Shown here one piece after another: positions 46,305-57,084 of a stretch of DNA of 64,000 nt. The stretch's first letter is position 1, and the number at the start of each line of letters is the position of its first letter. The notes under the pieces are model-generated. The model worked only from the letters and a program-made list of their open reading frames with translations, did not search any database and was not told the origin of the DNA. The stretch spans positions 1 through 64,000 of the forward strand of contig CAZUDQ010000006.1 in the NCBI GenBank assembly GCA_964619365.1. The letters are read 5' to 3'. This DNA comes from an uncultured archaeon. Its GTDB lineage: Archaea > Altiarchaeota > Altiarchaeia > JAFGQM01. The position numbers and the translations under genes are program-made.

Positions 46305-46496
46305 ATGGCACGTGTAGTTGACGAGACTTTTGAGGCGCTTTTTGCGATAACCGATATCAGGCAGCTCCTTAGGGAGACAAAACCAGATTACTCCTTAAAC
46401 AAGGAGCAAATGGCTCTTTTAGAGAAAAAACTTGAACGCGCAAGAGTGGCTCTTGAAAGAATCGAAGAGGACTTTAGGGAGACAAGTAAGAAATGA
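46305..46496 (+). CDS. Small helical protein preceding SepCysS (SepCysSn-like)
   Basis: 63 aa, FEALF....IR..LRET.P helical pattern; overlaps the pscS start (ATGA). Confidence 0.65.
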   Translation: MARVVDETFEALFAITDIRQLLRETKPDYSLNKEQMALLEKKLERARVALERIEEDFRETSKK

Positions 46497-47671
46497 ACCC
46501 GATAGGCACACTTCCCGTAAGAGAACGGGAAGAGGAAGCCATAAATCTTCAGCCGATTCAGGCGGCAGGAAGACTCACATCCGATGCCATGAAAGCACTC
46601 ATTGCTTATGGTGACGGATATTCTGCATGTGACTTGTGCCTTAAGCCGTTTCGTCTTGATACTATTAAAAAACCTGATATCGCTCAGTTCCACACCGATG
46701 TAGCAGACTGGTTGGGCGTCGACCAGATAAGAATAATGCCTGGAGCGCGCAGGGCTTTTCAGGCAGTATGTTTAAGCCTCCTTTCAAAAGGGGACACCGC
46801 ACTTATTACCCAGTTTGGGCATTACACAATAGGTCTTTCAGTTGAGCAGGCAGGAGCCACCTGGCGCGAGATACCTGCTGATGAAACAAATCACATCACG
46901 CCTGATGCTACAGCAGAGAAAATAGAGCTTGTAAAAAAGGAGACTGGTTCCGTCCCAAAGCTCATAAACGTTGCGCATTTTGACTACCAACTGGCTAACG
47001 AACATGATATAAAAGGGATCATCAAGGTCGCTCACGAATACGATGTTCCAGTACTTTATAATGGTGCTTACACAATTGGTGTCATGCCAGTAAACCACAA
47101 GGATTTTGGCGCGGATTTCTATGTCGCCTCAGGCCACAAGTCTATGGCGGCTCCAGCCCCAACTGGCGTTCTTGGAATGAATGATGAATGGGCAGAAAAA
47201 GTCTTTAGGACGACTGACGCGACCGGGGACGTTACCGGACGAAAGTTTGGAGTAAAGGAAGTCCAGCTTTTAGGCTGCACAGTCATGGGCGGCCCGCTTT
47301 TTGCTATGATGGCGTCTTTCCCCCACGTCAAGGAACGTGTTAAACACTGGGACACTGAACTTGAAAACGCTCGCTGGTTTGTTGACCAAATGTTAAAAAT
47401 TGAAGGGACTTCAGTTGTTTCTGAGATGCCAAGAAAGCACACGATAACAAAGATAAAGACTGACGGCTTTAACAAGATTGCAGATACGCACAAGAAAAGG
47501 GGGTTTTTCCTGACTAAAGCACTCTCATCGCGTAAGATAACGGGGCCGTTTCCCGGCGCAACGCGCGAGTGGAAGTTCTCAACTTACGGCCTAACACGAA
47601 AACAGGTAGAATACACCGCTAACGCGTTTAAGGAAATTGCTCTTGAGAACGGGCTTAATGTTTCTGACTAA
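46493..47671 (+). CDS. pscS: O-phosphoseryl-tRNA:Cys-tRNA synthase (SepCysS)
   Basis: NLQPIQAAGRL, GDGYS.CD.C, GARRAF, PLP lysine SGHKSMA, LLGCT, K.STYG. Confidence 0.93.
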   Translation: MNPIGTLPVREREEEAINLQPIQAAGRLTSDAMKALIAYGDGYSACDLCLKPFRLDTIKKPDIAQFHTDVADWLGVDQIRIMPGARRAFQAVCLSLLSKGDTALITQFGHYTIGLSVEQAGATWREIPADETNHITPDATAEKIELVKKETGSVPKLINVAHFDYQLANEHDIKGIIKVAHEYDVPVLYNGAYTIGVMPVNHKDFGADFYVASGHKSMAAPAPTGVLGMNDEWAEKVFRTTDATGDVTGRKFGVKEVQLLGCTVMGGPLFAMMASFPHVKERVKHWDTELENARWFVDQMLKIEGTSVVSEMPRKHTITKIKTDGFNKIADTHKKRGFFLTKALSSRKITGPFPGATREWKFSTYGLTRKQVEYTANAFKEIALENGLNVSD

Positions 47672-47687
47672 ATTTTTAGGAAAGAGC

Positions 47688-48461
47688 TTACTTTTTATGT
47701 TGCCGTCTTTTTGCTTTTCTCTCAGCAGAAATCTTTTTTAGCTTCTTTGCTTTACCGCCGTCTTTCCTTAGGGTTTTTCTGAGTTTAGCACCCTTTGCAC
47801 GCCAGACTATGACATTTTCCAGATTTGCCGCTTCATCGTGGGCCAGCTTTTCTGTATGGACAACGGAGCGCTTGATTGCTTCGTATTTACGTACGTCCTG
47901 TAAGGTTCGCGGGTTCTGTTCTTTAAAGCTTTGAGACTCTTTTGCCTTGGCTATTTTTGCATCTAACCAGTCGGCATGCGATTGATTTCCTCTAGATTGG
48001 TTTGCTTGATGTTTTTGAAGTCTGCGCAATTCTTTTAAGGGGACTCCGTCCACTTCGGTTTTTGGACCGATTCCTAATTCTTTTGCAGGCTTAAACTTTT
48101 TTGGGTTTCTTTGGCGTTTTCTCTCGGCAGAAATATTTTTTAATTTCTCGGCCTTTTTACCTCCAGCCTTCAGATCTGCACGCAATTTGCTTGCTCTTGT
48201 GCGCCAAACCCTGACCTGGCCGACAACTTCATTTAATGCTCCAGCTTCATTTCTGGCCCCCCTGGCAAGTCTGTTCGCATCCCTTGCAAGTGATGTATTC
48301 TCCCGGTAGTTCCCAACTCCTGCCGCCAGTTCATAATTCAAACCCTTTTGTTGATGTTTTTGTGCTTCTTTTCTTTTGGACTTGATTAAGCGATGTATTT
48401 GCTTAACTGAGATATCGGTGATATCTATTTCTGGGCCAAGGTTTGGTTTTTTGCTAGGCAT
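47688..48461 (-). CDS. Basic WRTRG-motif paralog 1 (two motif copies)
   Basis: VWRTRASKLRADLKAGG..KLKNISAERK and VWRAKGAKLRKTLRKDGG..KLKKISAERK; start set at MPSKK. Confidence 0.75.
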   Translation of the reverse strand: MPSKKPNLGPEIDITDISVKQIHRLIKSKRKEAQKHQQKGLNYELAAGVGNYRENTSLARDANRLARGARNEAGALNEVVGQVRVWRTRASKLRADLKAGGKKAEKLKNISAERKRQRNPKKFKPAKELGIGPKTEVDGVPLKELRRLQKHQANQSRGNQSHADWLDAKIAKAKESQSFKEQNPRTLQDVRKYEAIKRSVVHTEKLAHDEAANLENVIVWRAKGAKLRKTLRKDGGKAKKLKKISAERKAKRRQHKK

Positions 48462-48566
48462 CTTAATTGCTGAAAAGTTGTATATGATAATTAATTTCAA
48501 AAGAATAAAAACACTAAAGGTAAAACGCTCGCTCTTGATTTATTATTAATGAAAAGTAAGAAAATC

Positions 48567-49289
48567 TTACTTTCTTTTCTTGGAGATTGCCTTTAAGCGG
48601 TCCGCCTCAAAACCACCCTCGCGTAAAGTTTGCCTCAATGGAGCCCCCCTTGTACGCCACATAACTTTATGTCCTGCTTCTGCTGCCCTATTAGAAAACT
48701 TTTTTACTTGACCGCGCGCTGTCCACATTGTATTTATGTGCCGATTATACTCCGTGCGCGCACCATAATCGCTGCCCCCTTCTATTACGGCATTCACTCC
48801 TTTTTTCTTAACCATCCGATAAGCTTTTTCATCAGCTACATTAGCTAGACGTTCATGCTCCTTGGCTAATTTAAGGTTACGTTTTTGAACTCTGCTTAGT
48901 TGATTTACTTTTAATCGTTCTACTTTTACCTTAGACCCACCGTCTCGCAAAAATTGTCTAGTGGGTGCTCCGTATGTGCGCCAAGTGTGTGCCCAGTTAT
49001 ACTTAGCGGCTTCATCTGCAGAGAAATTCCGGTTCTTAGTTTCTACTGTTACTAAATCATTATATTTGACATAATCAGGATGTTCCTTGTTTATACGCGC
49101 AATATTGCGGGCGTTCTTATATGCTTCAATCCTTTGTTCAGCAACACCTGTGCGCTTAATAAAATGTTTTTTAGCAGTTGTTAACTGTTTGGCAGACATA
49201 TCCTTAAGCTCTGTATGCAAATTGACTCCTTTGGGTTTTGTTGGAAACTTCGCAAGTTTTGGGTGATATCCTCTGGGTCTTGTGGGCAT
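48567..49289 (-). CDS. Basic WRTRG-motif paralog 2 (two motif copies)
   Basis: TWRTYGAPTRQFLRDGG and MWRTRGAPLRQTLREGG..RLKAISKKRK. Confidence 0.75.
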   Translation of the reverse strand: MPTRPRGYHPKLAKFPTKPKGVNLHTELKDMSAKQLTTAKKHFIKRTGVAEQRIEAYKNARNIARINKEHPDYVKYNDLVTVETKNRNFSADEAAKYNWAHTWRTYGAPTRQFLRDGGSKVKVERLKVNQLSRVQKRNLKLAKEHERLANVADEKAYRMVKKKGVNAVIEGGSDYGARTEYNRHINTMWTARGQVKKFSNRAAEAGHKVMWRTRGAPLRQTLREGGFEADRLKAISKKRK

Positions 49290-49349
49290 TTTAAGTTGTA
49301 ATCTAAGATTTGGTCTAAAAAGATAAAAATGCCAGAAAGTAAGAAAATC

Positions 49350-50036
49350 TTACTTTTTGTTTTTAGAAATGATGCGTTTTGCTTTTCTTTTCTGCGAGAT
49401 TTTATTTAGTTTCTCCGATTTGGGGCCACCGTCTTTTATTGCTTGCTTTATGTCTGCCCCTTTAGTGCGCCACATGAGTTTAAATCTTACTTTTGCGAGC
49501 TCTTCGGTATGAATATTTTGAGCTTTTTTGGTTGCGATAAAGTTGATTTTGTGTGCACGATAAACTTCCTTGGTTGTTGTTTTAGCTTTCCCAGAGGGCA
49601 TTTGTATGTATTTTTTAAAAAGTGCTATTGCAACATCTTTATGTGTCTTTTTAGGTTCCTGACATGCAACAAGCCATTTCTTGCGTTTTTTTTCGTTTTT
49701 GCGCAGTTCATTCAACTCTTTTTTTAGGTCTTTTGCCCTCTTATTATATTCTAATGATTTATCAGCATGTACGTTTTTAGCCTCTGTGCTTATTTGCAAC
49801 GAATCAACATAGCTATTATAATTTTTGTCACCTTCTTTCGTGCTTTTGATTGCTTTTTTGAGTGCAACTAGATTCTTTTGATGTGCTTTACTAAGGCCCA
49901 TGTAATATTTTCTGCCGGCAATGGCCTGTTTTACTGAAATTGTAGAATTAACATTAGTAGCAGCGTTAAACCCCTTTGGTTTCTTTGCCAAGTTGGTGAA
50001 TTTTTCTCTAGGCTTTTTTACTGATTTTGAAACCAT
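49350..50036 (-). CDS. Basic WRTRG-motif paralog 3
   Basis: MWRTKGADIKQAIKDGGPKSEKLNKISQKRK. Confidence 0.75.
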   Translation of the reverse strand: MVSKSVKKPREKFTNLAKKPKGFNAATNVNSTISVKQAIAGRKYYMGLSKAHQKNLVALKKAIKSTKEGDKNYNSYVDSLQISTEAKNVHADKSLEYNKRAKDLKKELNELRKNEKKRKKWLVACQEPKKTHKDVAIALFKKYIQMPSGKAKTTTKEVYRAHKINFIATKKAQNIHTEELAKVRFKLMWRTKGADIKQAIKDGGPKSEKLNKISQKRKAKRIISKNKK

Positions 50037-50098
50037 TTTTAATTAGCATGCCTGACTAGGATAAGCAATAGACTTAAGAGTAAAGAGATAAAAATCCT

Positions 50099-50285
50099 AA
50101 AAAGTAAGAAAATCTTACTTTCTCGGAAATACCCGAGGAGTATTGTCGGGTTACTTTGTAACCCAACGTAATAGAAATTTAAAAAGTAAGAAAATCTTAC
50201 TTTATCGGAAATACCCGATGAGTATGGTCGGGTTACTTTGTAACCCAACATAATAGAAATTTAAAAGGTAAGAAAATCTTACTTT
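50099..50285. repeat. 82-bp tandem repeat (2 units plus a third palindrome), three hairpins per unit
   Basis: Period 82 (50099, 50181, 50263); 4 substitutions between units 1 and 2. Confidence 0.92.
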
Positions 50286-50809
50286 TTCGTTCTCCTTGAT
50301 TTTTTTCTCATATTTGAAATAAGTTTTAGTCTAAATGCCCCAATCCCACCTTTTTTCATTTTAGTCTTAAGCTTAGATCCGCGCGTGCGCCAGATAATTG
50401 CAGTCTCGTAATCTGCCCTTCTATTATTGAGGTATTTAGTGTAGGCTCCCTTTGATTGCTTGATTTGTCCGTCATAATCTTTTCTTCTGTACTTTAGCTC
50501 GCTTAAATTCAGCTTGTTAACATCAAGACCCTCTCTTAACTTTACTAATTCGGATTCTGCAAGCCGCCGTCCCTGTTTACCCTCTTTTATGTCTGCCCGA
50601 GATGATCTAAGTTCTTCCTGCTTACTGGCAATTTTCCGAAGTTCCTCGACATGTTTTATTCTACTACGAACCTCAGCTTCTGGCATTCCATTAATCTCTT
50701 CTTTTCTCAAGTCACCAAGAGGTGCAATTTGGAGTTGGTATGGTTCTCTGTGAGGTGGGCGTTTGATTTTAAACCATCCCAAAGAGGGCTTTTCCTGTTT
50801 TGTGGGCAT
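50279..50809 (-). CDS. Basic WRTRG-motif paralog 4
   Basis: IWRTRGSKLKTKMKKGG...RLKLISNMRK. Confidence 0.75.
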   Translation of the reverse strand: MPTKQEKPSLGWFKIKRPPHREPYQLQIAPLGDLRKEEINGMPEAEVRSRIKHVEELRKIASKQEELRSSRADIKEGKQGRRLAESELVKLREGLDVNKLNLSELKYRRKDYDGQIKQSKGAYTKYLNNRRADYETAIIWRTRGSKLKTKMKKGGIGAFRLKLISNMRKKSRRTKK

Positions 50810-50908
50810 TTAGTTATAATCGATAGGGGTTAAGGCTAAAGGAATAAAAAATTCAAAAGTAAGAATTTCTTACTTATTTCTTTAGGTTCCTGGAAAAGTA
50901 AGAAAATC

Positions 50909-51490
50909 TTACTTTTTGTTTTTAGAAATGAGGACCGTGCGTTTTGCTTTTCTTTTCTGCGAGATTTTATTTAGTTTCTCCGATTTGGGGCCGCCGTCTT
51001 TTATTGCTTGCTTTATGTCAGCTCCGCGAGTACGCCACATGAATGCATGATTAAATTTCGCCGCTTCTCCAGCAGCTTTTTTCGCTTCGTCTTGTCCTGC
51101 CGTCCTCAACTGGCTATATCTAGTAAACAAAGGACCCTCCTTGCGTGCATCAGCTACATTACGAGCTTTCTCATATGCATTGACCCTCTTTATATTTGCT
51201 TTGTTAAGTGCGTTGTAATAGTTTCTAGCCAGTTTTACTTGTCTTGTGGACATATCCTTAAGTTTAGCATCCGGATTAACTCCAATTGGTTGTTCCGGCA
51301 ACTTGATGGATTTTGGTCTGTAGCTATTACGTCCCCCTCGCTTGCCCACACCAGTACCCTGATGACTAAACTCCATTGCACCTCGTGGGCGCGACCTTGA
51401 CGTTCTGCCTGGAACAAACTCAAACTGGATTCCATATTGACTCGCAGCAGTAGACTTAATTTCTCCGTGCGATCTCGTAGGTCTTGGCAT
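50909..51490 (-). CDS. Basic WRTRG-motif paralog 5
   Basis: MWRTRGADIKQAIKDGGPKSEKLNKISQKRK. Confidence 0.75.
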   Translation of the reverse strand: MPRPTRSHGEIKSTAASQYGIQFEFVPGRTSRSRPRGAMEFSHQGTGVGKRGGRNSYRPKSIKLPEQPIGVNPDAKLKDMSTRQVKLARNYYNALNKANIKRVNAYEKARNVADARKEGPLFTRYSQLRTAGQDEAKKAAGEAAKFNHAFMWRTRGADIKQAIKDGGPKSEKLNKISQKRKAKRTVLISKNKK

Positions 51491-51540
51491 TTTAAGTTAT
51501 ATACTAGAATTCATTCTAAAAAGATAAAAATAAAGAAAAA

Positions 51541-51556
51541 TGGGGATTTCTCCCCA
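51541..51556 (-). terminator. GNRA hairpin after Cys-rich gene 1
   Basis: Minus strand TGGGGA-GAAA-TCCCCA followed by a T-tract. Confidence 0.6.
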
Positions 51557-51563
51557 GTTAGTC

Positions 51564-52382
51564 CTAGACGCAACACGCCCCACATGAACTGTGTCCACAG
51601 GTGCTTGCCGAAAGGTCTGTACTTATCCAACAAACGCCAGTGCAGGTGCTTGTCGTAGACTTTGCGACATAACAGGTTCCTCCAAGAAGTCCAGCTTCCG
51701 TTGGACACCCTTCCTCAGATACTGTAGAGTCACTGCCATCCATCGAATATGTGCAACCACAGTTTTTCATCTTTTGGATTGCCTGTTCCTCTGGCGTGGG
51801 GCTTGGTGGGTTTGGCATTGTGCACATCTCGTTTGAGTCGTGCCCGCAACCCGTTCCATCAGATTCTACCCAGCACTTGCCGTCGCATGATTCTTTTGTC
51901 ATTACCCATTGGCTGCCCTGCTTTTCTGTGTAAACGTCACTTGCTTCCGAGTCATACCAGCAGCCACAGTTTTCCATAGCGTCATTTGCTTCAGACTTTG
52001 TAAGCTCTGTTGGCTCAGGAGGTTCTGGGGGGTTTGGCATTGTGCACATCTCGTTTGAGTCGTGCCCGCAACCAGTATCATCAGTTCCTACCCAGCATTT
52101 TCCGCCGCATGATTCTTTTGTCATTACCCACTGGCTGCCCTGCTTTTCTGTGTATACTCCGTTGGCATACGGGTCATACCAGCAGCCGCAGTCTTTCATT
52201 GCGGCATTTGCCTGGGATTCGGTCAGGTCTGTTGTCGGTGTGGGTGTCGGGGTTGGAGTGGGTGTTGGCGTCGGAGTCGGTGCGGGGGCTGGAGAACCAC
52301 CCATAAGGACTACGGCCGCTATTATCGCAAGCACTATCACTACAACGCCAATAATTACTAATTGTTGTGTATCTAATGTCAT
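51564..52382 (-). CDS. Membrane-anchored Cys-rich repeat surface protein (3 repeats, PT linker)
   Basis: N-terminal TM helix, (PT)n, repeats LT.S.A..AM..CGCWYD...QWVMTKESC.GKCWV...GCGHDSNEMCTMP. Confidence 0.85.
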   Translation of the reverse strand: MTLDTQQLVIIGVVVIVLAIIAAVVLMGGSPAPAPTPTPTPTPTPTPTPTTDLTESQANAAMKDCGCWYDPYANGVYTEKQGSQWVMTKESCGGKCWVGTDDTGCGHDSNEMCTMPNPPEPPEPTELTKSEANDAMENCGCWYDSEASDVYTEKQGSQWVMTKESCDGKCWVESDGTGCGHDSNEMCTMPNPPSPTPEEQAIQKMKNCGCTYSMDGSDSTVSEEGCPTEAGLLGGTCYVAKSTTSTCTGVCWISTDLSASTCGHSSCGACCV

Positions 52383-52499
52383 TTTTGATTTGCTTAAAAG
52401 CATAAAATCTTATGGCAGATTTGATTTAAATGAGAATGCCTAAGGAAGAATAAGATAATTGCAATAAGAAAAAGAATAAAATAAAAAAAGAAAATATTT

Positions 52500-52515
52500 G
52501 GGGAGTCACCTCCCC
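52500..52515 (-). terminator. GNRA hairpin after Cys-rich gene 2
   Basis: Minus strand GGGGAG-GTGA-CTCCCC followed by a T-rich tract. Confidence 0.6.
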
Positions 52516-52523
52516 TTAGCTAC

Positions 52524-54041
52524 TTAGAGACAACACGCCCCACATGAACTATGTCCGCAAGTGCTTGACGAAAGGTCAGTGCTTACCCAGCAGACGCCTG
52601 AACATGTGCTTGATGTAGACTCTGCAACCCAGCACTCGCCACCAAGAAGTTTTGCTTCAGTTGGACAACTCTTCTTTGAAACTGTTGAGTCGCTTCCAGT
52701 CATAGAATAGCTGCAACCGCAGTTCTTCATCATCTCGATTGCTTTTTCCTTGTCTGTTGGCTCAGGTGGATCTGGCATTGTGCACATCTCGTTTGAGTCG
52801 TGTCCGCAGTTGTAAGCATCTGTGTCTATCCAACACTTTCCGCCACAATTCTCTTTGGTCATAACCCACTGGTTGCTCTTCTTCTTTGTAGACACATCAC
52901 TTGCACTTGGATCATACCAGCAACCGCAGTTTACCATTCTCCTATCTGCTTCATCCTGGTCAATTGTGCAATCAGCCTTTGTGATATGCGTCTTTCCAGA
53001 GTATAGGTTTATTCTACATTCACCCTTACAACTGTCATGCGTTATAACAAGGTCGTCGCCATCATATCTTGTGTGGCTTTTACTGCTACCTGCATCAAAC
53101 GGGCATCCATTGTCTTCAAGGCGCCTGACAGCCGTACTCTTTGACATCTTACACTGTGGGTCGCCTGGAATCTGTGTGTCACCAGTGTTCACATTGATTT
53201 TACACTGTTCCTGGCAATTCTCCTCTTTCATAATATAGTAGTCTCCACTGCGGTAGACGTCAACATCACTGTCTGAAGGGTCAAATGGACAACCTGCAGC
53301 TTCCATTTTTGAAACCGCCTGGCTTCTTGTTAATGGGCCTTCTTTACATGCTGGACCGCCTGCATCAACGTGGACATATCCTGTGTTCTTGTTACAGGTA
53401 CACTGTCCATTACAGCCTGTCTTTTGCATGACATACTGGTCAGCACTCCATGTTACTGAGACACCAGTGTCGCCGTAATTATAGAAACATCCGCCGGATT
53501 TCATCTTATCGATACATTCCTGCTGTGTGAGCCCTGGAGTTAGTCCCGTGCACATCTCGTTAACATCATGTCCGCAACCCGAACCGTCAAGATTTACCCA
53601 GCATTTTCCACCACATCCGGATTTCGAGATAATCCATTGGTTACCTTCTTGGGCTATCGACTCGTCTGGGTCTGATAAATCATACCAGCAACCACATGCC
53701 ACCATTGCCGATGTTGCTTCAGACTTTGTTAAGTCCTGTGTCGGAGTTGGCGTTGAACCGCAGTCTGCAGTTATATCAATGTTGCCTGACTTTTCGTTGA
53801 TTGCACATGAACCGGTGCAACCTTCTTTTGTCATCGTCAATACGTCACCTGAAATCGAGACTGAGACGCCTTCCTCACTTTGTGAGTATGGGCATGTTGA
53901 ACTTTCAAGTCTAGATATCGCTTCACTTGGTGTCAGTTCGCTACTTGATGAACCGCCGCTTAGTAAAACAACTGCTGCGATTACAACAACTAGGACTACT
54001 ACCACTAAAATCACTATTTGTTTAGAATTGTTTGAATCCAT
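52524..54041 (-). CDS. Membrane-anchored Cys-rich repeat surface protein (~7 repeats)
   Basis: N-terminal TM helix; seven ~60-75 aa units; same C-terminal unit as 51564 (TCGHSSCGACC). Confidence 0.85.
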   Translation of the reverse strand: MDSNNSKQIVILVVVVLVVVIAAVVLLSGGSSSSELTPSEAISRLESSTCPYSQSEEGVSVSISGDVLTMTKEGCTGSCAINEKSGNIDITADCGSTPTPTQDLTKSEATSAMVACGCWYDLSDPDESIAQEGNQWIISKSGCGGKCWVNLDGSGCGHDVNEMCTGLTPGLTQQECIDKMKSGGCFYNYGDTGVSVTWSADQYVMQKTGCNGQCTCNKNTGYVHVDAGGPACKEGPLTRSQAVSKMEAAGCPFDPSDSDVDVYRSGDYYIMKEENCQEQCKINVNTGDTQIPGDPQCKMSKSTAVRRLEDNGCPFDAGSSKSHTRYDGDDLVITHDSCKGECRINLYSGKTHITKADCTIDQDEADRRMVNCGCWYDPSASDVSTKKKSNQWVMTKENCGGKCWIDTDAYNCGHDSNEMCTMPDPPEPTDKEKAIEMMKNCGCSYSMTGSDSTVSKKSCPTEAKLLGGECWVAESTSSTCSGVCWVSTDLSSSTCGHSSCGACCL

Positions 54042-54117
54042 TTTGGATTGATTAATAATATCCCCGATAATAGTTATGGAATTTCTTATTTAAATGCAAA
54101 TAATCAAAGTAAAGGCA

Positions 54118-54870
54118 ATGCTTGAGATAAAGAATTTGTCTGTCGGTATTGAAGATAAAAAGATACTGGAGGACATTAACATCAAGGTAGGTTCGGGCGA
54201 GACTTATATGATATTTGGCCCCAACGGCAGCGGCAAGACTACATTATTAAGGGCTATTCTCGGCTATCCAAAATATGATGTGCTCAATGGAAAAATAGAA
54301 CTTAATGGAAAAGAACTTACAACGTTACCAATAGACAAAAGAGTAAAACTTGGTCTTGGAATGGGGTTCCAGCATCCCCCTGAGATAAAGGGGATAACGC
54401 TTCTTGATATGCTTAAGATTTGCGAAGGTAAAGGTCCTGAAGACGATTTATCAAACGATGCAAAAAACCTGATAAAAAAATTAAATATGTCAGATTTCCT
54501 TGAAAGGGATGTCAATCGAGGTTTTTCCGGAGGGGAAAGGAAGCGCTCAGAAGTCCTTCAACTGCTTCTTATGAAACCGCACCTGATGCTTCTTGACGAG
54601 CCGGACTCAGGCGTTGATGTAGAAAGCCTTGCACTAATCGGAAAGACTATAAATGATTACATCAAAAAAGAAGATGCCTCGGCGATGATAGTCACTCATC
54701 AGGGAAAAGTCATGGATTATATTGCGGCAAGCCACGCATGCGTCCTTATCGGTGGAAAGTCTTATTGTTACAAAGGACCAAAGGGCATAATGAAGGATAT
54801 CGAAGAGCGTGGATATCGTGCATGCGTCAACTGCCCTTTGCGAAAGGAGGATGATAACTGTGGAACGTAA
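54118..54870 (+). CDS. sufC: Fe-S assembly ATPase SufC (SmsC-like)
   Basis: GPNGSGKT, FQHPP, N.GFSGGE.KR.E, DEPDSGVD, C-terminal CxxC. Confidence 0.92.
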   Translation: MLEIKNLSVGIEDKKILEDINIKVGSGETYMIFGPNGSGKTTLLRAILGYPKYDVLNGKIELNGKELTTLPIDKRVKLGLGMGFQHPPEIKGITLLDMLKICEGKGPEDDLSNDAKNLIKKLNMSDFLERDVNRGFSGGERKRSEVLQLLLMKPHLMLLDEPDSGVDVESLALIGKTINDYIKKEDASAMIVTHQGKVMDYIAASHACVLIGGKSYCYKGPKGIMKDIEERGYRACVNCPLRKEDDNCGT

Positions 54871-55996
54871 AGACAAGTCGTCAGACATCCTCTCAGACCT
54901 TCCAGAGGAGATATTAAAGGCGGCGGCAAAGGTCGGTGTGACTAGAGAAGATAAGTCAAATGATAGGGCCGGGACCTACTTCCAGCTTGATGAAAACAGG
55001 ATAGATGCTGCAATAAACAAACGCATGGAAGGTCTCATTGAGATAATGCCTATTGAAGAGGCTCTCAAAAAATACGCCTGGCTTAAAGATTATTCCTGGA
55101 ATCTTGTTCCAAAGGATAAAGACGAATTCACAAAAGAGGTCGCAAAAAACGGCAAAGGCGGTTACTTCATGAGAATACTAAAAGACGCTGATGTGACATT
55201 TCCCCTACAATCATGCCTTATGGTTTCTGACGGTGAACGCCAGCGCGTCCATAATATAATAATAGCTGAGGAGGGTTCTAACTCGCGAATAATCACCGGT
55301 TGTGCCAAACATCCGCACGCGCAAAATGGCGAACATCTTGGAATCTCGGAATTATATGTCAAAAAGGGCGCAAAACTTCATTTTACTATGATTCATGACT
55401 GGGCACAAGGGACAAAAGTCCGCCCAAGAAGCGTGACAAATATTGAAGATGGTGGGGAATTCATTTCAGACTATATATCTCTTGCACCTGTAGCAGACAT
55501 ACAGATGTACCCAAAAGCCGTCTGTAAGGGAAAAGGATCGCGCGCTGCACTCAATTCCATACTTCTTGCAAAAGGCAAAAGCAATCTTGATATTGGAAGC
55601 GAGATTGTGCTTTCTGGAAAGGGCTCGCAAGGTGAAATAGTATCACGCTCAATTGCAAAAGATGAGGCTACACTTATTGTCAGGGGGCGCCTAGTTGGCA
55701 AGTCTAAAGAATGCACGGGGCATTTGGAGTGTCAGAGCCTTAACCTGGGGGAAGCAAATATCCATGCTATCCCTGAGCTAAAGGTTGTTACAGAAGGTGC
55801 AGAACTTTCACACGAGGCCGCAGTTGGCAAGATATCTGATGTCGAACTTGTCTACCTCATGTCGCGCGGCTTAAGCGAAGATGAAGCAACGGCAACAATT
55901 GCACGAGGTTTTTTAGATGCAAAAATACTTGGTCTTCCAGAAGAACTTGAGGCGAGAATTAAAAAACTGGTCGACGAGGCGGCTATTGGAAACTAG
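54851..55996 (+). CDS. sufB: Fe-S assembly scaffold SufB/D (SmsB-like)
   Basis: PLQSC, HNIIIAEEGS, GHLEC, IPEL, LSHEAAVGKI, YLMSRGL. Confidence 0.92.
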   Translation: MITVERKDKSSDILSDLPEEILKAAAKVGVTREDKSNDRAGTYFQLDENRIDAAINKRMEGLIEIMPIEEALKKYAWLKDYSWNLVPKDKDEFTKEVAKNGKGGYFMRILKDADVTFPLQSCLMVSDGERQRVHNIIIAEEGSNSRIITGCAKHPHAQNGEHLGISELYVKKGAKLHFTMIHDWAQGTKVRPRSVTNIEDGGEFISDYISLAPVADIQMYPKAVCKGKGSRAALNSILLAKGKSNLDIGSEIVLSGKGSQGEIVSRSIAKDEATLIVRGRLVGKSKECTGHLECQSLNLGEANIHAIPELKVVTEGAELSHEAAVGKISDVELVYLMSRGLSEDEATATIARGFLDAKILGLPEELEARIKKLVDEAAIGN

Positions 55997-56001
55997 ACCG
56001 G

Positions 56002-56373
56002 CTAGTTCTTATCTCTTGGAAACAAGTTTTTTACTTCCAAAGGCATGAGTTCTTTGTGTTTATCCACAGGTATTTTTCTAGGGGAAATTGGCTCTCCATA
56101 GGTACCCATGTGTCTCCGTGACATTTTAGATCCAGAAATCACTATGTCTGACCCCTCATGTTTAAAAGTTATGCTTCGTATGAGTTGTTCTCGGGGCAAC
56201 CATTGTTCATGACTTATTTTCATCCCTGTGGGTGATTTTCTCCAGGTGAGCTTGTCTCCTGCAGGCATCGATTTTTTATATTCCCGTAGCATCTGCCTTA
56301 AATTAGGCATGAAGGGATGTTCCTTGTTCGTAGAACTCTTTCTAACTGGATTTTTCCTGGCGGGCATTGCCAT
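56002..56373 (-). CDS. Small basic orphan protein
   Basis: M(AM)PARKNPVRK start; upstream motif like that of the paralog array; antisense between sufB and porC. Confidence 0.6.
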   Translation of the reverse strand: MAMPARKNPVRKSSTNKEHPFMPNLRQMLREYKKSMPAGDKLTWRKSPTGMKISHEQWLPREQLIRSITFKHEGSDIVISGSKMSRRHMGTYGEPISPRKIPVDKHKELMPLEVKNLFPRDKN

Positions 56374-56511
56374 ATACTTACCCTTAAAAAGATAAAAGTT
56401 GCGGCCTAAAAAAGAATCGCCCTTTTATTCTCGTATGGGTAATATATTCCTTCTTTTTGTTAGGCCAAAAGCCAACGCAAAAGATACTTCAAATATAACC
56501 TTCACCACAAA

Positions 56512-57084
56512 ATGGATAAAGGCATCTTTGAGGTGCGCATTCACGGAAGAGGCGGACAAGGTGGAAAAACCGCTGCACAATTCATTGCAGAATCGGCAAT
56601 GGATGAAGATAAGTTTGTGCAGGCATTTCCCGAGTATGGCCCTGAACGTAGTGGAGCACCTGTAACTGCATATGCGCGTATATCGGACGAAAAAATCCGT
56701 TTATACCAGCCAGTCCGCAACCCGGACGTAGTGCTTGTGATTGATCCGACACTTATCGGTCCGATAAGTGTCAGCGATGGAATGGATGAAAACGGGATTC
56801 TTATTATAAATTCACCAAAGAGTCCTGACGAGATGAAAAAAGAGACTGGCTTTAAAGGTAAGGTTTACACCGTTGATGCCACAAAAATCTCCCTTGAAGC
56901 TACAGGCGCCAATAAGCCCAATTTACCAATACTTGGAGCCCTAGTCAAAGCAACAGGAATCATCTCTATTGAGGCTCTTGAAGAAAAGACACGTCAGAAA
57001 TTCGAAAAGAAGCTGGGCAAAGAAAAAACCCAGGCGACAGTCGATGCCATAAAAAGTGCTTATGACGGGGTAAAAGGAAACTGA
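56512..57084 (+). CDS. porC: Pyruvate:ferredoxin oxidoreductase gamma
   Basis: EVRIHGRGGQG, FPEYGPERSGAPV. Confidence 0.93.
   Translation: MDKGIFEVRIHGRGGQGGKTAAQFIAESAMDEDKFVQAFPEYGPERSGAPVTAYARISDEKIRLYQPVRNPDVVLVIDPTLIGPISVSDGMDENGILIINSPKSPDEMKKETGFKGKVYTVDATKISLEATGANKPNLPILGALVKATGIISIEALEEKTRQKFEKKLGKEKTQATVDAIKSAYDGVKGN

Follow-up and report, generated by a model that had tools for sequence, protein, structure and literature searches.

Five co-oriented ORFs (p1 to p5; 176-257 aa) lie on the minus strand of the 64,000-nucleotide stretch of DNA analysed here (the window), in the genome of an uncultured archaeon from a salt lake. They raise the question of what an array of very basic paralogs without a recognised family does in this organism. 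The reading we prefer, tentatively and as something short of probable, is that the array encodes a species-specific dimeric protein that would bind DNA or RNA, with an H-NS-like build without being H-NS. The family is known from one population, represented by a single MAG (85% complete, 1.2 Mb).

Layout of the array

The preliminary description had listed five basic minus-strand ORFs, four of them with MP- starts, and its coordinates agree with ours (Table 1). The pI is 10.35-10.90 in all five, with 23-27% K+R and 8-12.5% D+E; K+R exceeds the genome's 95th percentile in every paralog and the 99th in three (1073 rough genes). Only p3 departs from the MP- start. The p1 frame could be extended to a TTG at 48500, but this start is unlikely to be used because it lies only 2 nt after the TATA-like box.

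A T5-6AT[CT] box, a putative promoter, precedes the ATG of each of the five genes at a distance of 32-50 nt, and no Shine-Dalgarno sequence was found ahead of any of them. The stop codon of p2 to p5 lies inside a hairpin followed by a terminator-like T-run. From these predicted boxes and hairpins, each gene appears to be its own transcription unit. The two repeat units between p4 and p3 are 95% identical and fold at -29.9 kcal/mol (z -5.6). The array is flanked by housekeeping genes and by two extracellular Cys-rich membrane proteins, unrelated to the paralogs and equally lineage-restricted. With such neighbors and apparently one transcription unit per gene, the locus gave no sign of the multi-component "system" suspected earlier.

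Table 1. Positions of genes, module copies, putative promoters, hairpins and repeats in the window
Feature	Position	Strand	Remarks
p1	47688..48461	-	257 aa from its ATG; basic; two units, two module copies
p2	48567..49289	-	240 aa; basic; two units, first module copy degenerate in second half
p3	49350..50036	-	228 aa; basic; starts MVSK
p4	50279..50809	-	176 aa; basic; single unit; basis of monomer and homodimer models
p5	50909..51490	-	193 aa; basic; longer disordered Arg/Gly/Pro-rich N-terminal region
Module copy p1a	48096..48242	-	W-R-T-R-A...GG...L..IS..RK
Module copy p1b	47694..47840	-	
Module copy p2a	48873..49019	-	second half degenerate; 2-residue insertion after GG
Module copy p2b	48570..48695	-	
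Module copy p3	49362..49508	-	
Module copy p4	50282..50428	-	
Module copy p5	50927..51073	-	
TATA-like box TTTTTATTC	48503..48511	-	putative promoter, 41 nt before p1 ATG
TATA-like box ATTTTTATC	49322..49330	-	putative promoter, 32 nt before p2 ATG
TATA-like box ATTTTTATC	50087..50095	-	putative promoter, 50 nt before p3 ATG
TATA-like box TTTTTTATT	50843..50851	-	putative promoter, about 33 nt before p4 ATG
TATA-like box TTTTTATC	51523..51530	-	putative promoter, 32 nt before p5 ATG
Hairpin GTAAGATTTTCTTAC	48556..48570	-	holds p2 stop codon, then T-run; -8.4 kcal/mol, z -3.1
Hairpin GTAAGATTTTCTTAC	49339..49353	-	holds p3 stop codon; -8.7 kcal/mol, z -3.0
Hairpin GTAAGATTTTCTTAC	50268..50282	-	holds p4 stop codon
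Hairpin GTAAGATTTTCTTAC	50898..50912	-	holds p5 stop codon
Second, variant hairpin	50859-50873		just ahead of p4 TATA-like box
Hairpin GGGGAGAAATCCCC and T-run	51542-51555		ends upstream Cys-rich gene; p5 TATA-like box comes after
Genome-wide three-hairpin repeat	50098..50261	-	two tandem 82-nt units, between p4 and p3

Shared C-terminal module, divergent bodies

As the preliminary description had proposed, a C-terminal module, W-R-T-R-G...GG...L..IS..RK, is common to all five proteins and doubled in p1 (W86 and W220) and p2 (W103 and W211), while p3, p4 and p5 carry it once; all seven copies were located, and p2 has an additional half-copy, MWTARG, at residue 189. At seven module positions (W, R, G, G, L, R, K) the five full-length proteins agree without exception. 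When W-R-T-[KR]-G-[AS]..GG was searched as a degenerate DNA pattern, the window gave four matches compared to zero in each of 100 shuffles, which is more than chance. An HMM built from the seven copies was run against six-frame ORFs (20,258 in the 1.2-Mb genome) and returned these five only (E 8e-41 to 3e-21), with the next best at E 0.14. Between the modules, the aligned columns of the bodies show only 31-55% identity, in keeping with the earlier picture of a constant module on a variable body. An upstream module (KPKG.N....L.DMS.KQ / ISVKQ), claimed for all paralogs, was readily recognised in p2, p3 and p5 and less so in p1 and p4. Over 35 codons, the tails of p3 and p5 share 91% DNA identity, which falls to 47% directly upstream, a pattern that indicates gene conversion.

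The ORFs are genes under constraint

Counted between stop codons, the five back-to-back ORFs measure 176-283 codons. Among 500 Markov-1 simulations matched in composition, none produced an ORF above 169 codons, and the mean of the longest ORF was 97, so that all five are longer than every simulation. In the module, pN was lower than pS in 19 of 21 copy pairs (pN 0.15-0.66, pS 0.34-0.88), with synonymous sites saturated between paralogs (pS 0.54-0.88). Because the ORFs exceed the expectation from composition and the module shows this excess of pS, we conclude that they are real genes under constraint. Four metagenome runs showed almost no variation across the array. In metagenome contigs, two single-base variants fell inside paralogs (49593 and 49596), both at third codon positions and read as synonymous, and the only indel inside a paralog was of 6 nt and in frame. 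The GC3 of the five genes (0.33-0.39, genome median 0.40, sd 0.04) and their codon usage are near the genome's.

The family was found in one genome only

The claims that the paralogs have no recognised family and are lineage-specific both held. No family was recognised in Pfam, NCBIfam, PHROGs, PADLOC or PDB sequences, and within everything searched the family occurred in this one genome. When 1.84 billion representatives were searched with a profile, only the five proteins themselves came back; the family was absent from all 60 other genomes of the phylum and from the syntenic site in relatives, and the family profiles matched none of the genome's other genes. No search detected a nucleic-acid-binding domain. 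For three of the five proteins PHROGs gave no match at E <= 0.1; the best match for p3 (E 0.00036) is partial, to a terminase tail region, and not convincing, and the best for p2 had E 0.008. Among the 5027 models of PADLOC-DB, no family was found at E <= 0.01 for the five proteins or for both Cys-rich neighbors.

Predicted fold and dimer

The models share one plan: a disordered Lys/Pro-rich start, a helical hairpin of ~50+50 residues and, after a GG turn, an end helix that is basic. In the p4 model (pLDDT 67), residues 1-43 are disordered and helices span 44-94, 102-153 and 156-175; the AF2 model of p1 is all-helical and repeats the p4-type plan twice over (mean pLDDT 69). Confidence in these models is moderate (pLDDT 67-69, pTM 0.24-0.32). 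Hydrophobic residues are scarce in the helices, which might be disordered when isolated or exist as single charged helices.

The structure check suggested earlier placed the proteins significantly in no well-known family. For the p1 model, Foldseek ranked CHMP1B, Vipp1, PspA and F-BAR chains highest, all non-significant (E 0.21-1.1, TM <= 0.38), the best being CHMP1B (E 0.21, TM 0.26/0.38; model pLDDT 67-69). VIA-align against 48,161 chains gave only generic single-helix coiled-coil matches (best Z 6.4, none at Z >= 8).

The p4 homodimer model reached a median ipSAE of 0.59 over three runs, compared to 0.00 for the best control. In the tool's calibration, the 0.59 mark was attained by 20 of 30 proteins with a solved pair structure and by 1 of 23 with a solved single-chain structure. 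The input was a custom 7-row alignment, and coiled coils may owe such scores to memorisation. Partner pLDDT was no lower than 66, and at least 75% of contacts were common to the runs. The interface predicted with confidence spans residues 46-130 around a two-fold axis at residue 74. The dimer is predicted, from modeling only, to pair the variable hairpins and leave the conserved module (140-176) free.

Likeness to known proteins

The plan predicted by these models, a dimerising helical coiled coil followed by a short basic C-terminal module, resembles that of the H-NS type (H-NS and StpA, with the functional analogues MvaT and Lsr2), as do the several paralogs per genome and the variable genome region. 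By eye, the array module W-R-T-R-G-A-D-IKQAIKDGGPKSEKL recalls an H-NS stretch, but without statistical similarity. The H-NS module is a beta-hairpin plus helix, whereas the array module is predicted to be helix-GG-helix; the array also differs in its archaeal host and in its whole-protein pI above 10. Homology to H-NS was tried and rejected: PF00816 (Histone_HNS) gave no match in the whole genome at E <= 10 (9 candidates scored), and hhalign of module alignment A2 with E. coli H-NS returned a probability of 0.15%, E 0.38 and one aligned column.

HBHA is a coiled-coil dimer with a lysine-rich end, and the predicted array dimer with its basic end would be alike in this respect. The resemblance to H1-like proteins and tails in general (eukaryotic H1, chlamydial Hc1/Hc2, AlgP, mycobacterial HBHA and HU tails) lies in extreme positive charge and disordered Lys/Pro-rich segments. 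The array proteins differ in that they lack low-complexity tandem peptide repeats and have instead a defined 35-aa module in which W, R, G, GG, L and R are invariant, and no sequence similarity to H1-like proteins was detected in Pfam or among the 1.84 billion representatives. Two papers concern such Lys/Pro/Ala-rich H1-like proteins and tails (PMC10665949, PMC9239181).

Proposed explanation

We propose that the array formed when an entire unit of promoter, gene and hairpin terminator was duplicated in tandem. Each protein would consist of a disordered, Lys/Arg/Pro-rich N-terminal tail; a fast-evolving hairpin of two ~50-residue helices, which would pair antiparallel with a second copy to form a four-helix dimer core; a strongly basic conserved module, with W-R-T-R-G at the end of the long helix and the GG turn after it; and a last helix bearing L..IS..RK-KR. 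A dimer would thus offer two basic modules (four in p1 and p2) and its tails to a polyanion, most likely DNA or RNA, which it would coat, bridge or condense. The H-NS-type building plan, an oligomerising coiled coil with a small basic binding module, would have been reached independently. The dimer itself is a prediction only, and we infer the binding target and role.

Nucleic-acid binding and a host-directed effector role, the two functions put forward in the preliminary description, were both suggested by composition and stay provisional. Basic helical proteins bind many polyanions and membranes, and composition alone cannot discriminate between these targets. There is also no chromatin gap to fill, because two histones (on C8), Alba (C7) and MC1 (C3) are already encoded in the genome; PF00808, PF01918 and PF05854 (histone fold, Alba, MC1) were not reported for the five proteins in the Pfam scan.

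The five paralogs belong to a set of basic orphans with MP-Lys/Pro starts that extends across the genome, and we count this context in favor of the preferred reading; further members lie at C1:195675, C3:233, C9:20835 and C13:13743. The paralogs share with this set extreme charge, restriction to the species and the lack of a Pfam family, and differ in forming a sequence family of their own and in being the sole tandem array of five seen. The genome has seven MPKPK-coding sites compared to 0-1 in each of 20 relatives; none of the five paralogs starts with exactly MPKPK.

Alternative readings

The start shared by many unrelated orphans of this set would also suit exported or contact-delivered effectors or cationic antimicrobials, with the MP-Lys/Pro start as a targeting tag, the body changing in conflict with a host, a partner or a competitor, and delivery or activity falling to the constant module. 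The fast divergence of the body beside this module, the small genome (1.2 Mb at 85% completeness) of an uncultured organism and the two adjoining lineage-restricted extracellular proteins are also consistent with such a role. Against it, neither a signal peptide nor a transmembrane segment was seen by eye, the locus has no linked secretion machinery, and a strictly Lys/Pro-rich start (at least five K/R/P in residues 2-11) is found in p1 and p2 only, with p3 lacking even MP; we consider effectors unlikely.

The orphan set also allows a bolder account, to which we give little credence. The array would be the largest family in a genome-wide burst of newborn, very basic proteins sharing an MP-Lys/Pro targeting or processing tag, and the paralogs a new class of dimeric helix-GG-helix nucleic-acid clamp without known ancestor, serving as an extra chromatin layer or handed to a partner cell.

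Binding to another polyanion or surface appears similarly doubtful. The proteins would bind polyphosphate granules or membranes (through ESCRT-III/PspA-like hairpins), or would be LEA-type hydrophilins that protect against stress in a salt lake. The highly hydrophilic, helical sequences, the saline habitat and the non-significant Foldseek rows (best E 0.21) point this way, and the array models, like the membrane remodellers ESCRT-III, PspA and Vipp1, show a long alpha1-alpha2 hairpin with shorter helices after it. ESCRT-III proteins have an acidic autoinhibitory C-terminus; the array proteins are uniformly basic and lack one, as they lack an amphipathic membrane helix, and the locus has no Vps4/CdvC-type partner. 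Neither Snf7 and PspA/IM30 nor any LEA family was listed in the Pfam scan of the five proteins at E <= 1, and the fold matches are to generic single long helices. For polyphosphate granules there is a precedent in Pseudomonas AlgP, a lysine-rich H1-like protein reported to be a granule organiser (PMC9239181).

A 6.4-kb block (47688 to 54041) is absent from the same site in three relatives with spanning contigs. This block, its two adjacent orphan families and a slightly low local GC (0.389 at 48001-50000, 0.41-0.47 elsewhere) could mark a virus or mobile-element remnant captured in a variable chromosomal site, with the basic helical proteins as nucleocapsid or genome-coating proteins and the Cys-rich neighbors as envelope. 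We regard this as quite improbable: integrase, replication and packaging genes are absent, the window holds no tRNA gene, the PHROGs matches are unconvincing, BFVD gave no fold matches at E <= 0.001, the motif pattern occurred zero times in a viral contig collection, codon usage is near the host's and the paralog divergence is old.

Finally, that the ORFs are young proto-genes of little or no function, duplicated with repeats and kept by chance on an A-rich, T-poor coding strand (38% A, 22% T) that lengthens random ORFs, would fit the lack of homologues and the interleaved genome-wide repeat, but is made very doubtful by ORF lengths beyond all simulations, a module kept at the protein level despite saturated synonymous sites, its seven invariant residues and a promoter-like box kept in all five copies.

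Significance

The practical weight of the finding is limited by the single uncultured population from which the family is known. If the preferred reading, a dimeric nucleic-acid-binding protein, is true, this archaeon would have invented an abundant-looking, charge-extreme family from scratch and expanded it via tandem duplication with gene conversion. The family would then have arrived independently at the design known from bacterial H-NS-type proteins, in which an oligomerising coiled coil is joined to a small basic module. Its tie to a wider feature of the genome, the many unrelated basic orphans with the same start type, would make gene birth, and a possible targeting tag, testable in one organism.

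Five basic paralogs share a conserved C-terminal module

The ORF listing and the sequence agreed with the preliminary description of five co-oriented minus-strand ORFs (p1–p5). As it had claimed, the proteins were K/R-rich and very basic, with pI 10.35–10.90, K+R of 23–27% and a net charge of ~ +26 to +43. In a rough genome set of 1073 ORFs (median pI 6.3, median K+R 12.4%), all five lay above the 95th percentile for K+R and three of them above the 99th. Alignment of the five proteins yielded seven copies of a module, [A..A......][IVM]-W-R-T-[RKY]-G-[AS]-x-[LI]-[KR]-x-x-[LIM]-[KR]-x-G-G-x4-[KR]-L-x-x-I-S-x-x-R-K, and confirmed that p1 and p2 each carry it twice. W, R, G, L and the R of the final R-K were invariant in all seven. 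When an HMM of the seven copies was run against this genome, a check proposed earlier, only p1–p5 matched (E 8e-41 to 3e-21); the next-best match among 20,258 six-frame ORFs had E 0.14. The window contained 4 matches to a degenerate DNA pattern for the module's first half, vs 0 in 100 shuffles.

Coordinates of the array genes, neighbouring features, repeats and other basic orphans (C, contigs of the same genome; L, corresponding loci of relatives)
Feature	Location	Strand	Length
p1	47688-48461	minus	257 aa
p2	48567-49289	minus	240 aa
p3	49350-50036	minus	228 aa
p4	50279-50809	minus	176 aa
p5	50909-51490	minus	193 aa
Cys-rich proteins	51564-52403; 52524-54041	minus	
ORF before SepCysS	46305-46496	plus	63 aa
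SepCysS to POR-gamma interval	47671-56512		
Basic ORF before POR-gamma, window	56002-56373	minus	
Basic ORF before POR-gamma, relatives	L014 11251-11892; L015 9469-10140	minus	
Hairpin/82-nt repeat sites, window	50098-50261; 48556-48570; 49339-49353; 50268-50282; 50859-50873; 50898-50912		
Hairpin repeat elsewhere in genome (examples)	C3:1-110; C4:30981-31080; C4:91332-91430; C6:82092-82190; C10:44795-44975; C11:9645-9745; C13:6307-6520		
Other basic orphans starting MP[KR]..P	C1:195675-196034; C3:233-856; C9:20835-21485; C13:13743-14084		

Other contigs of the genome encode further very basic orphans that start MP[KR]..P (see table), which fell in no Pfam family and were unrelated to p1–p5 by profile search. 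An MPKPK-coding pattern occurred at 7 sites in this genome vs 0–1 in each of 20 relatives, and its reversed control at 0 sites in this genome. The paralogs match this set loosely: four of the five start MP-, as previously described, and two pass a strict rule of at least five K/R/P within residues 2–11. The protein at C1:195675 contains ARLQAGGKTSVLKKV, loosely resembling the array module; the module profile gave no match there.

The array genes are under constraint

Random ORFs are lengthened on the coding strand of the array, because it is A-rich (38% A, 22% T). The longest random ORF in 500 Markov-1 simulations had a mean of 97 codons and a maximum of 169; the observed frames of p1–p5 span 176–283 codons from stop to stop. 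Among the module copies pS was 0.54–0.88, near saturation, but 0.34 for p3/p5, and pN was 0.15–0.66. In 19 of 21 copy pairs pN was below pS, and both exceptions include p2a, the degenerate first copy in p2. Codon usage in the array was close to that of the genome, with differences that include Leu CTT (0.25 vs 0.48), and GC3 was 0.33–0.39 vs 0.40 ± 0.04 for the genome. These five ORFs are a real orphan gene family under constraint.

Every one of the five genes has a T5-6AT[CT] box 32–50 nt upstream of its ATG, and no Shine-Dalgarno sequence was found upstream of any of them. The archaeal TATA box lies ~26 nt upstream of the transcription start; given this rule, the spacing of the box suggests that the leaders are very short or absent.

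The family is confined to one population

The paralogs belong to no recognised family, as had been stated from the sequence: no match in Pfam, NCBIfam, PHROGs or PADLOC came close to a cut-off. At E ≤ 10, isolated module copies returned three unrelated singletons from Pfam, and PDB sequences gave 0 matches to the family profile. When p5 was searched by word index against 5.8 billion clusters, only p5 and p3 were recovered among 205 candidates. An exhaustive search by profile across 1.84 billion representatives (~15 billion proteins) recovered five proteins and no others, with the lengths of the window's own five. In a search of archaeal genomes by HMM, also suggested beforehand, the full-length profile matched only the window's own genome out of 61 in the relatives set. 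The module profile, run over 61 species-level genomes of the phylum, matched this genome and gave one match in the related genome G030 (E 0.0087, 17 positions), which is at chance level across 61 genomes. Five matches to the motif pattern in genome contigs and five in metagenome contigs were likewise rejected as chance. They lay mostly in high-GC bacterial DNA, three loci had identical sequence, none extended into L..IS..RK and many had nearby stop codons; their small HMM scores come from residues that the pattern itself fixes. The ESM Atlas gave no usable match by features, and its structure matches (TM ≤ 0.37 by query) were unrelated helical proteins.

Pieces of the array were found without differences on contigs of four salt-lake metagenome runs, which may share one sampling campaign. 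Contigs from three of these four runs bridged the SepCysS-p1 junction, indicating that the linkage cannot be put down to an artefact in a single assembly. This comparison was made with contigs and speaks to presence and linkage, not expression; the array stretch was present in six sequencing runs, no RNA run among these. The family is confined to one population. Titles and abstract openings held nothing relevant on a WRTRG family or MPKPK starts, and the family was absent from those on Altiarchaeota, salt lakes, nucleoid-associated proteins and orphans. As far as this literature search goes, it is apparently undescribed. The array is unusual in its five tandem copies, each with a predicted promoter of its own, its defined and invariant module, and its lack of any relative among ~15 billion proteins.

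The array occupies a variable site

The genes on both sides of the array are housekeeping genes. One flank carries aIF5B, PCMT, GlnA, Lrp, ThiM, ThiE and SepCysS; the other carries SufC, SufBD, pyruvate:ferredoxin oxidoreductase, a radical-SAM protein and a DsbA-like protein. Relatives keep both flanks and differ from the window in the interval between SepCysS and POR-gamma (loci L014, L015 and L016). This interval is 74 nt without genes in G003, holds NifS/NifU-like genes and one unrelated ORF in G004, and these plus two further ORFs in G001; the window has SufC/SufBD and the orphan block. The kept flanks and differing content mark this site as variable within this archaeal family. Among the genomes searched, the 6.4-kb block of five paralogs and two Cys-rich membrane proteins occurred only in the window's genome. 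Searching for the locus by SepCysS alone returned no relatives.

The basic minus-strand ORF just before POR-gamma differs from genome to genome. Those of G004 and G001 are unrelated to each other and were rejected as family members; the family profile matched nothing in either genome. The two Cys-rich proteins are paralogous; both have a membrane helix at the N terminus, linkers rich in Pro/Thr and repeats of Cys-rich modules of the form CGCWYD...CGGKCW...CGHD.NEMCT. They were absent from 60 relatives searched and had one distant homologue in the protein collection (P0007, 506 aa, 34% identity), a seven-fold repeat of a ~65-aa four-Cys module. The 63-aa ORF lies directly before SepCysS and overlaps its start; with 62–72% identity in four relatives, it may encode a small conserved protein that serves SepCysS as a partner or leader. 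The host is an uncultured archaeon from a small phylum; the closest named record to its PorA is labelled Candidatus Altiarchaeota (78% identity), and no mcrA was found in its genome.

A genome-wide hairpin repeat ends four of the genes

In four of the five array genes (p2–p5) the stop codon falls within the hairpin GTAAGATTTTCTTAC, with a T-run after it; two genes unrelated to the array also have their TAA stop inside this hairpin. It has a folding energy of –8.4 to –8.7 kcal/mol (z about –3) and is repeated genome-wide in 38 copies with at most one mismatch, 7 of them within the array. A ~82-nt unit, often bracketed by the hairpin, forms three hairpins when folded (–29.9 kcal/mol, z –5.6). 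For 47000-52000 Rfam gave no match above threshold; two weaker matches to miRNA models fell on the hairpins (E 0.37 and 0.47). The repeat looks like a REP/MITE-like element or a common terminator module. We rejected the hairpin as a mobile promoter cassette for MP-start genes, as outside the array only one copy (C3:92) lies upstream of such a gene.

Probable recombination within the array

Whole-protein identity among the paralogs was 31–55% over aligned columns. The tails of p3 and p5, by contrast, share 91% DNA identity over 35 codons (four synonymous and two non-synonymous codon differences), and identity drops to 47% just upstream. This sharp edge points to a recent exchange between the two tails, by gene conversion or recombination. 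Over 46 nt the p2 and p5 promoter regions also share 83% identity, so the unit that was duplicated takes in the promoter and the terminator hairpin.

A contig of metagenome run X4 (depth 2.3) joins 49372 to 50938, omitting 1565 nt that comprise the tail of p5, p4 and the body of p3; 55 nt at the join fit both sides. A contig of run X1 has a p3 tail with the p5-type 6-nt insertion. These contigs reflect either population recombination variants across the 105-nt p3/p5 tail repeat or an assembler jump at the repeat.

Predicted structure

The AlphaFold2 model of p4 (pLDDT 67, pTM 0.24), built with a 7-row alignment of units, has disordered residues 1–43 followed by helices at 44–94, 102–153 and 156–175. 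W-R-T-R-G lies near the end of the second long helix, and GG forms the break that precedes the final basic helix. In the p1 model the same plan occurs twice (pLDDT 69). Fold comparisons were unspecific. Foldseek, another of the checks proposed, found no PDB match at E ≤ 0.001; its top row was CHMP1B (E 0.21, TM 0.26/0.38), with F-BAR, Vipp1 and PspA chains next. BFVD likewise gave 0 matches at E ≤ 0.001, and VIA-align over 48,161 chains reached Z ≤ 6.4, all with single long coiled-coil helices.

A p4 homodimer model scored 0.59 vs 0.00 for the best control and passed the tool's mark. In the tool's calibration, 20 of 30 proteins with structures solved as pairs reached this mark, as did 1 of 23 solved as single chains. 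The model is a prediction from a shallow alignment of our own, and coiled coils may score through memorisation by the predictor. The partner chains had a pLDDT of at least 66, and the runs agreed on at least 75% of contacts. The predicted interface spans residues 46–130 with a two-fold axis at residue 74, forming an antiparallel four-helix core from the variable hairpins and leaving the conserved module (140–176) outside the confident interface.

Possible role

The anatomy would comprise a variable core that is predicted to dimerise, a floppy Lys/Pro-rich start and a conserved basic module, left free, that has an invariant aromatic residue as well as glycines. Together with the net charge, this modelled arrangement fits best a polyanion binder, most simply of DNA or RNA; each dimer would make contact by two to four identical basic modules.

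We weighed four other readings. Exported effectors, the foremost of them, are unlikely; next come binders of polyphosphate or membranes, or stress protectants, for which the probability is also low. A viral remnant is quite improbable, and the motif pattern had 0 matches in viral contigs. We give equally little credence to functionless proto-genes, the five genes being under constraint.

As polyanion binders, p1–p5 may share their design logic with H-NS-type proteins. By eye the module strikingly resembles the C-terminal stretch of H-NS, but tests did not support this likeness. The Pfam H-NS model had 0 matches in the genome at E ≤ 10, and hhalign gave the module a probability of 0.15% against H-NS; we therefore suggest that the family may work like H-NS, not that it is a member of it. 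Since the host genome encodes its own histones, Alba and MC1, the family would add to the chromatin set, not replace it.
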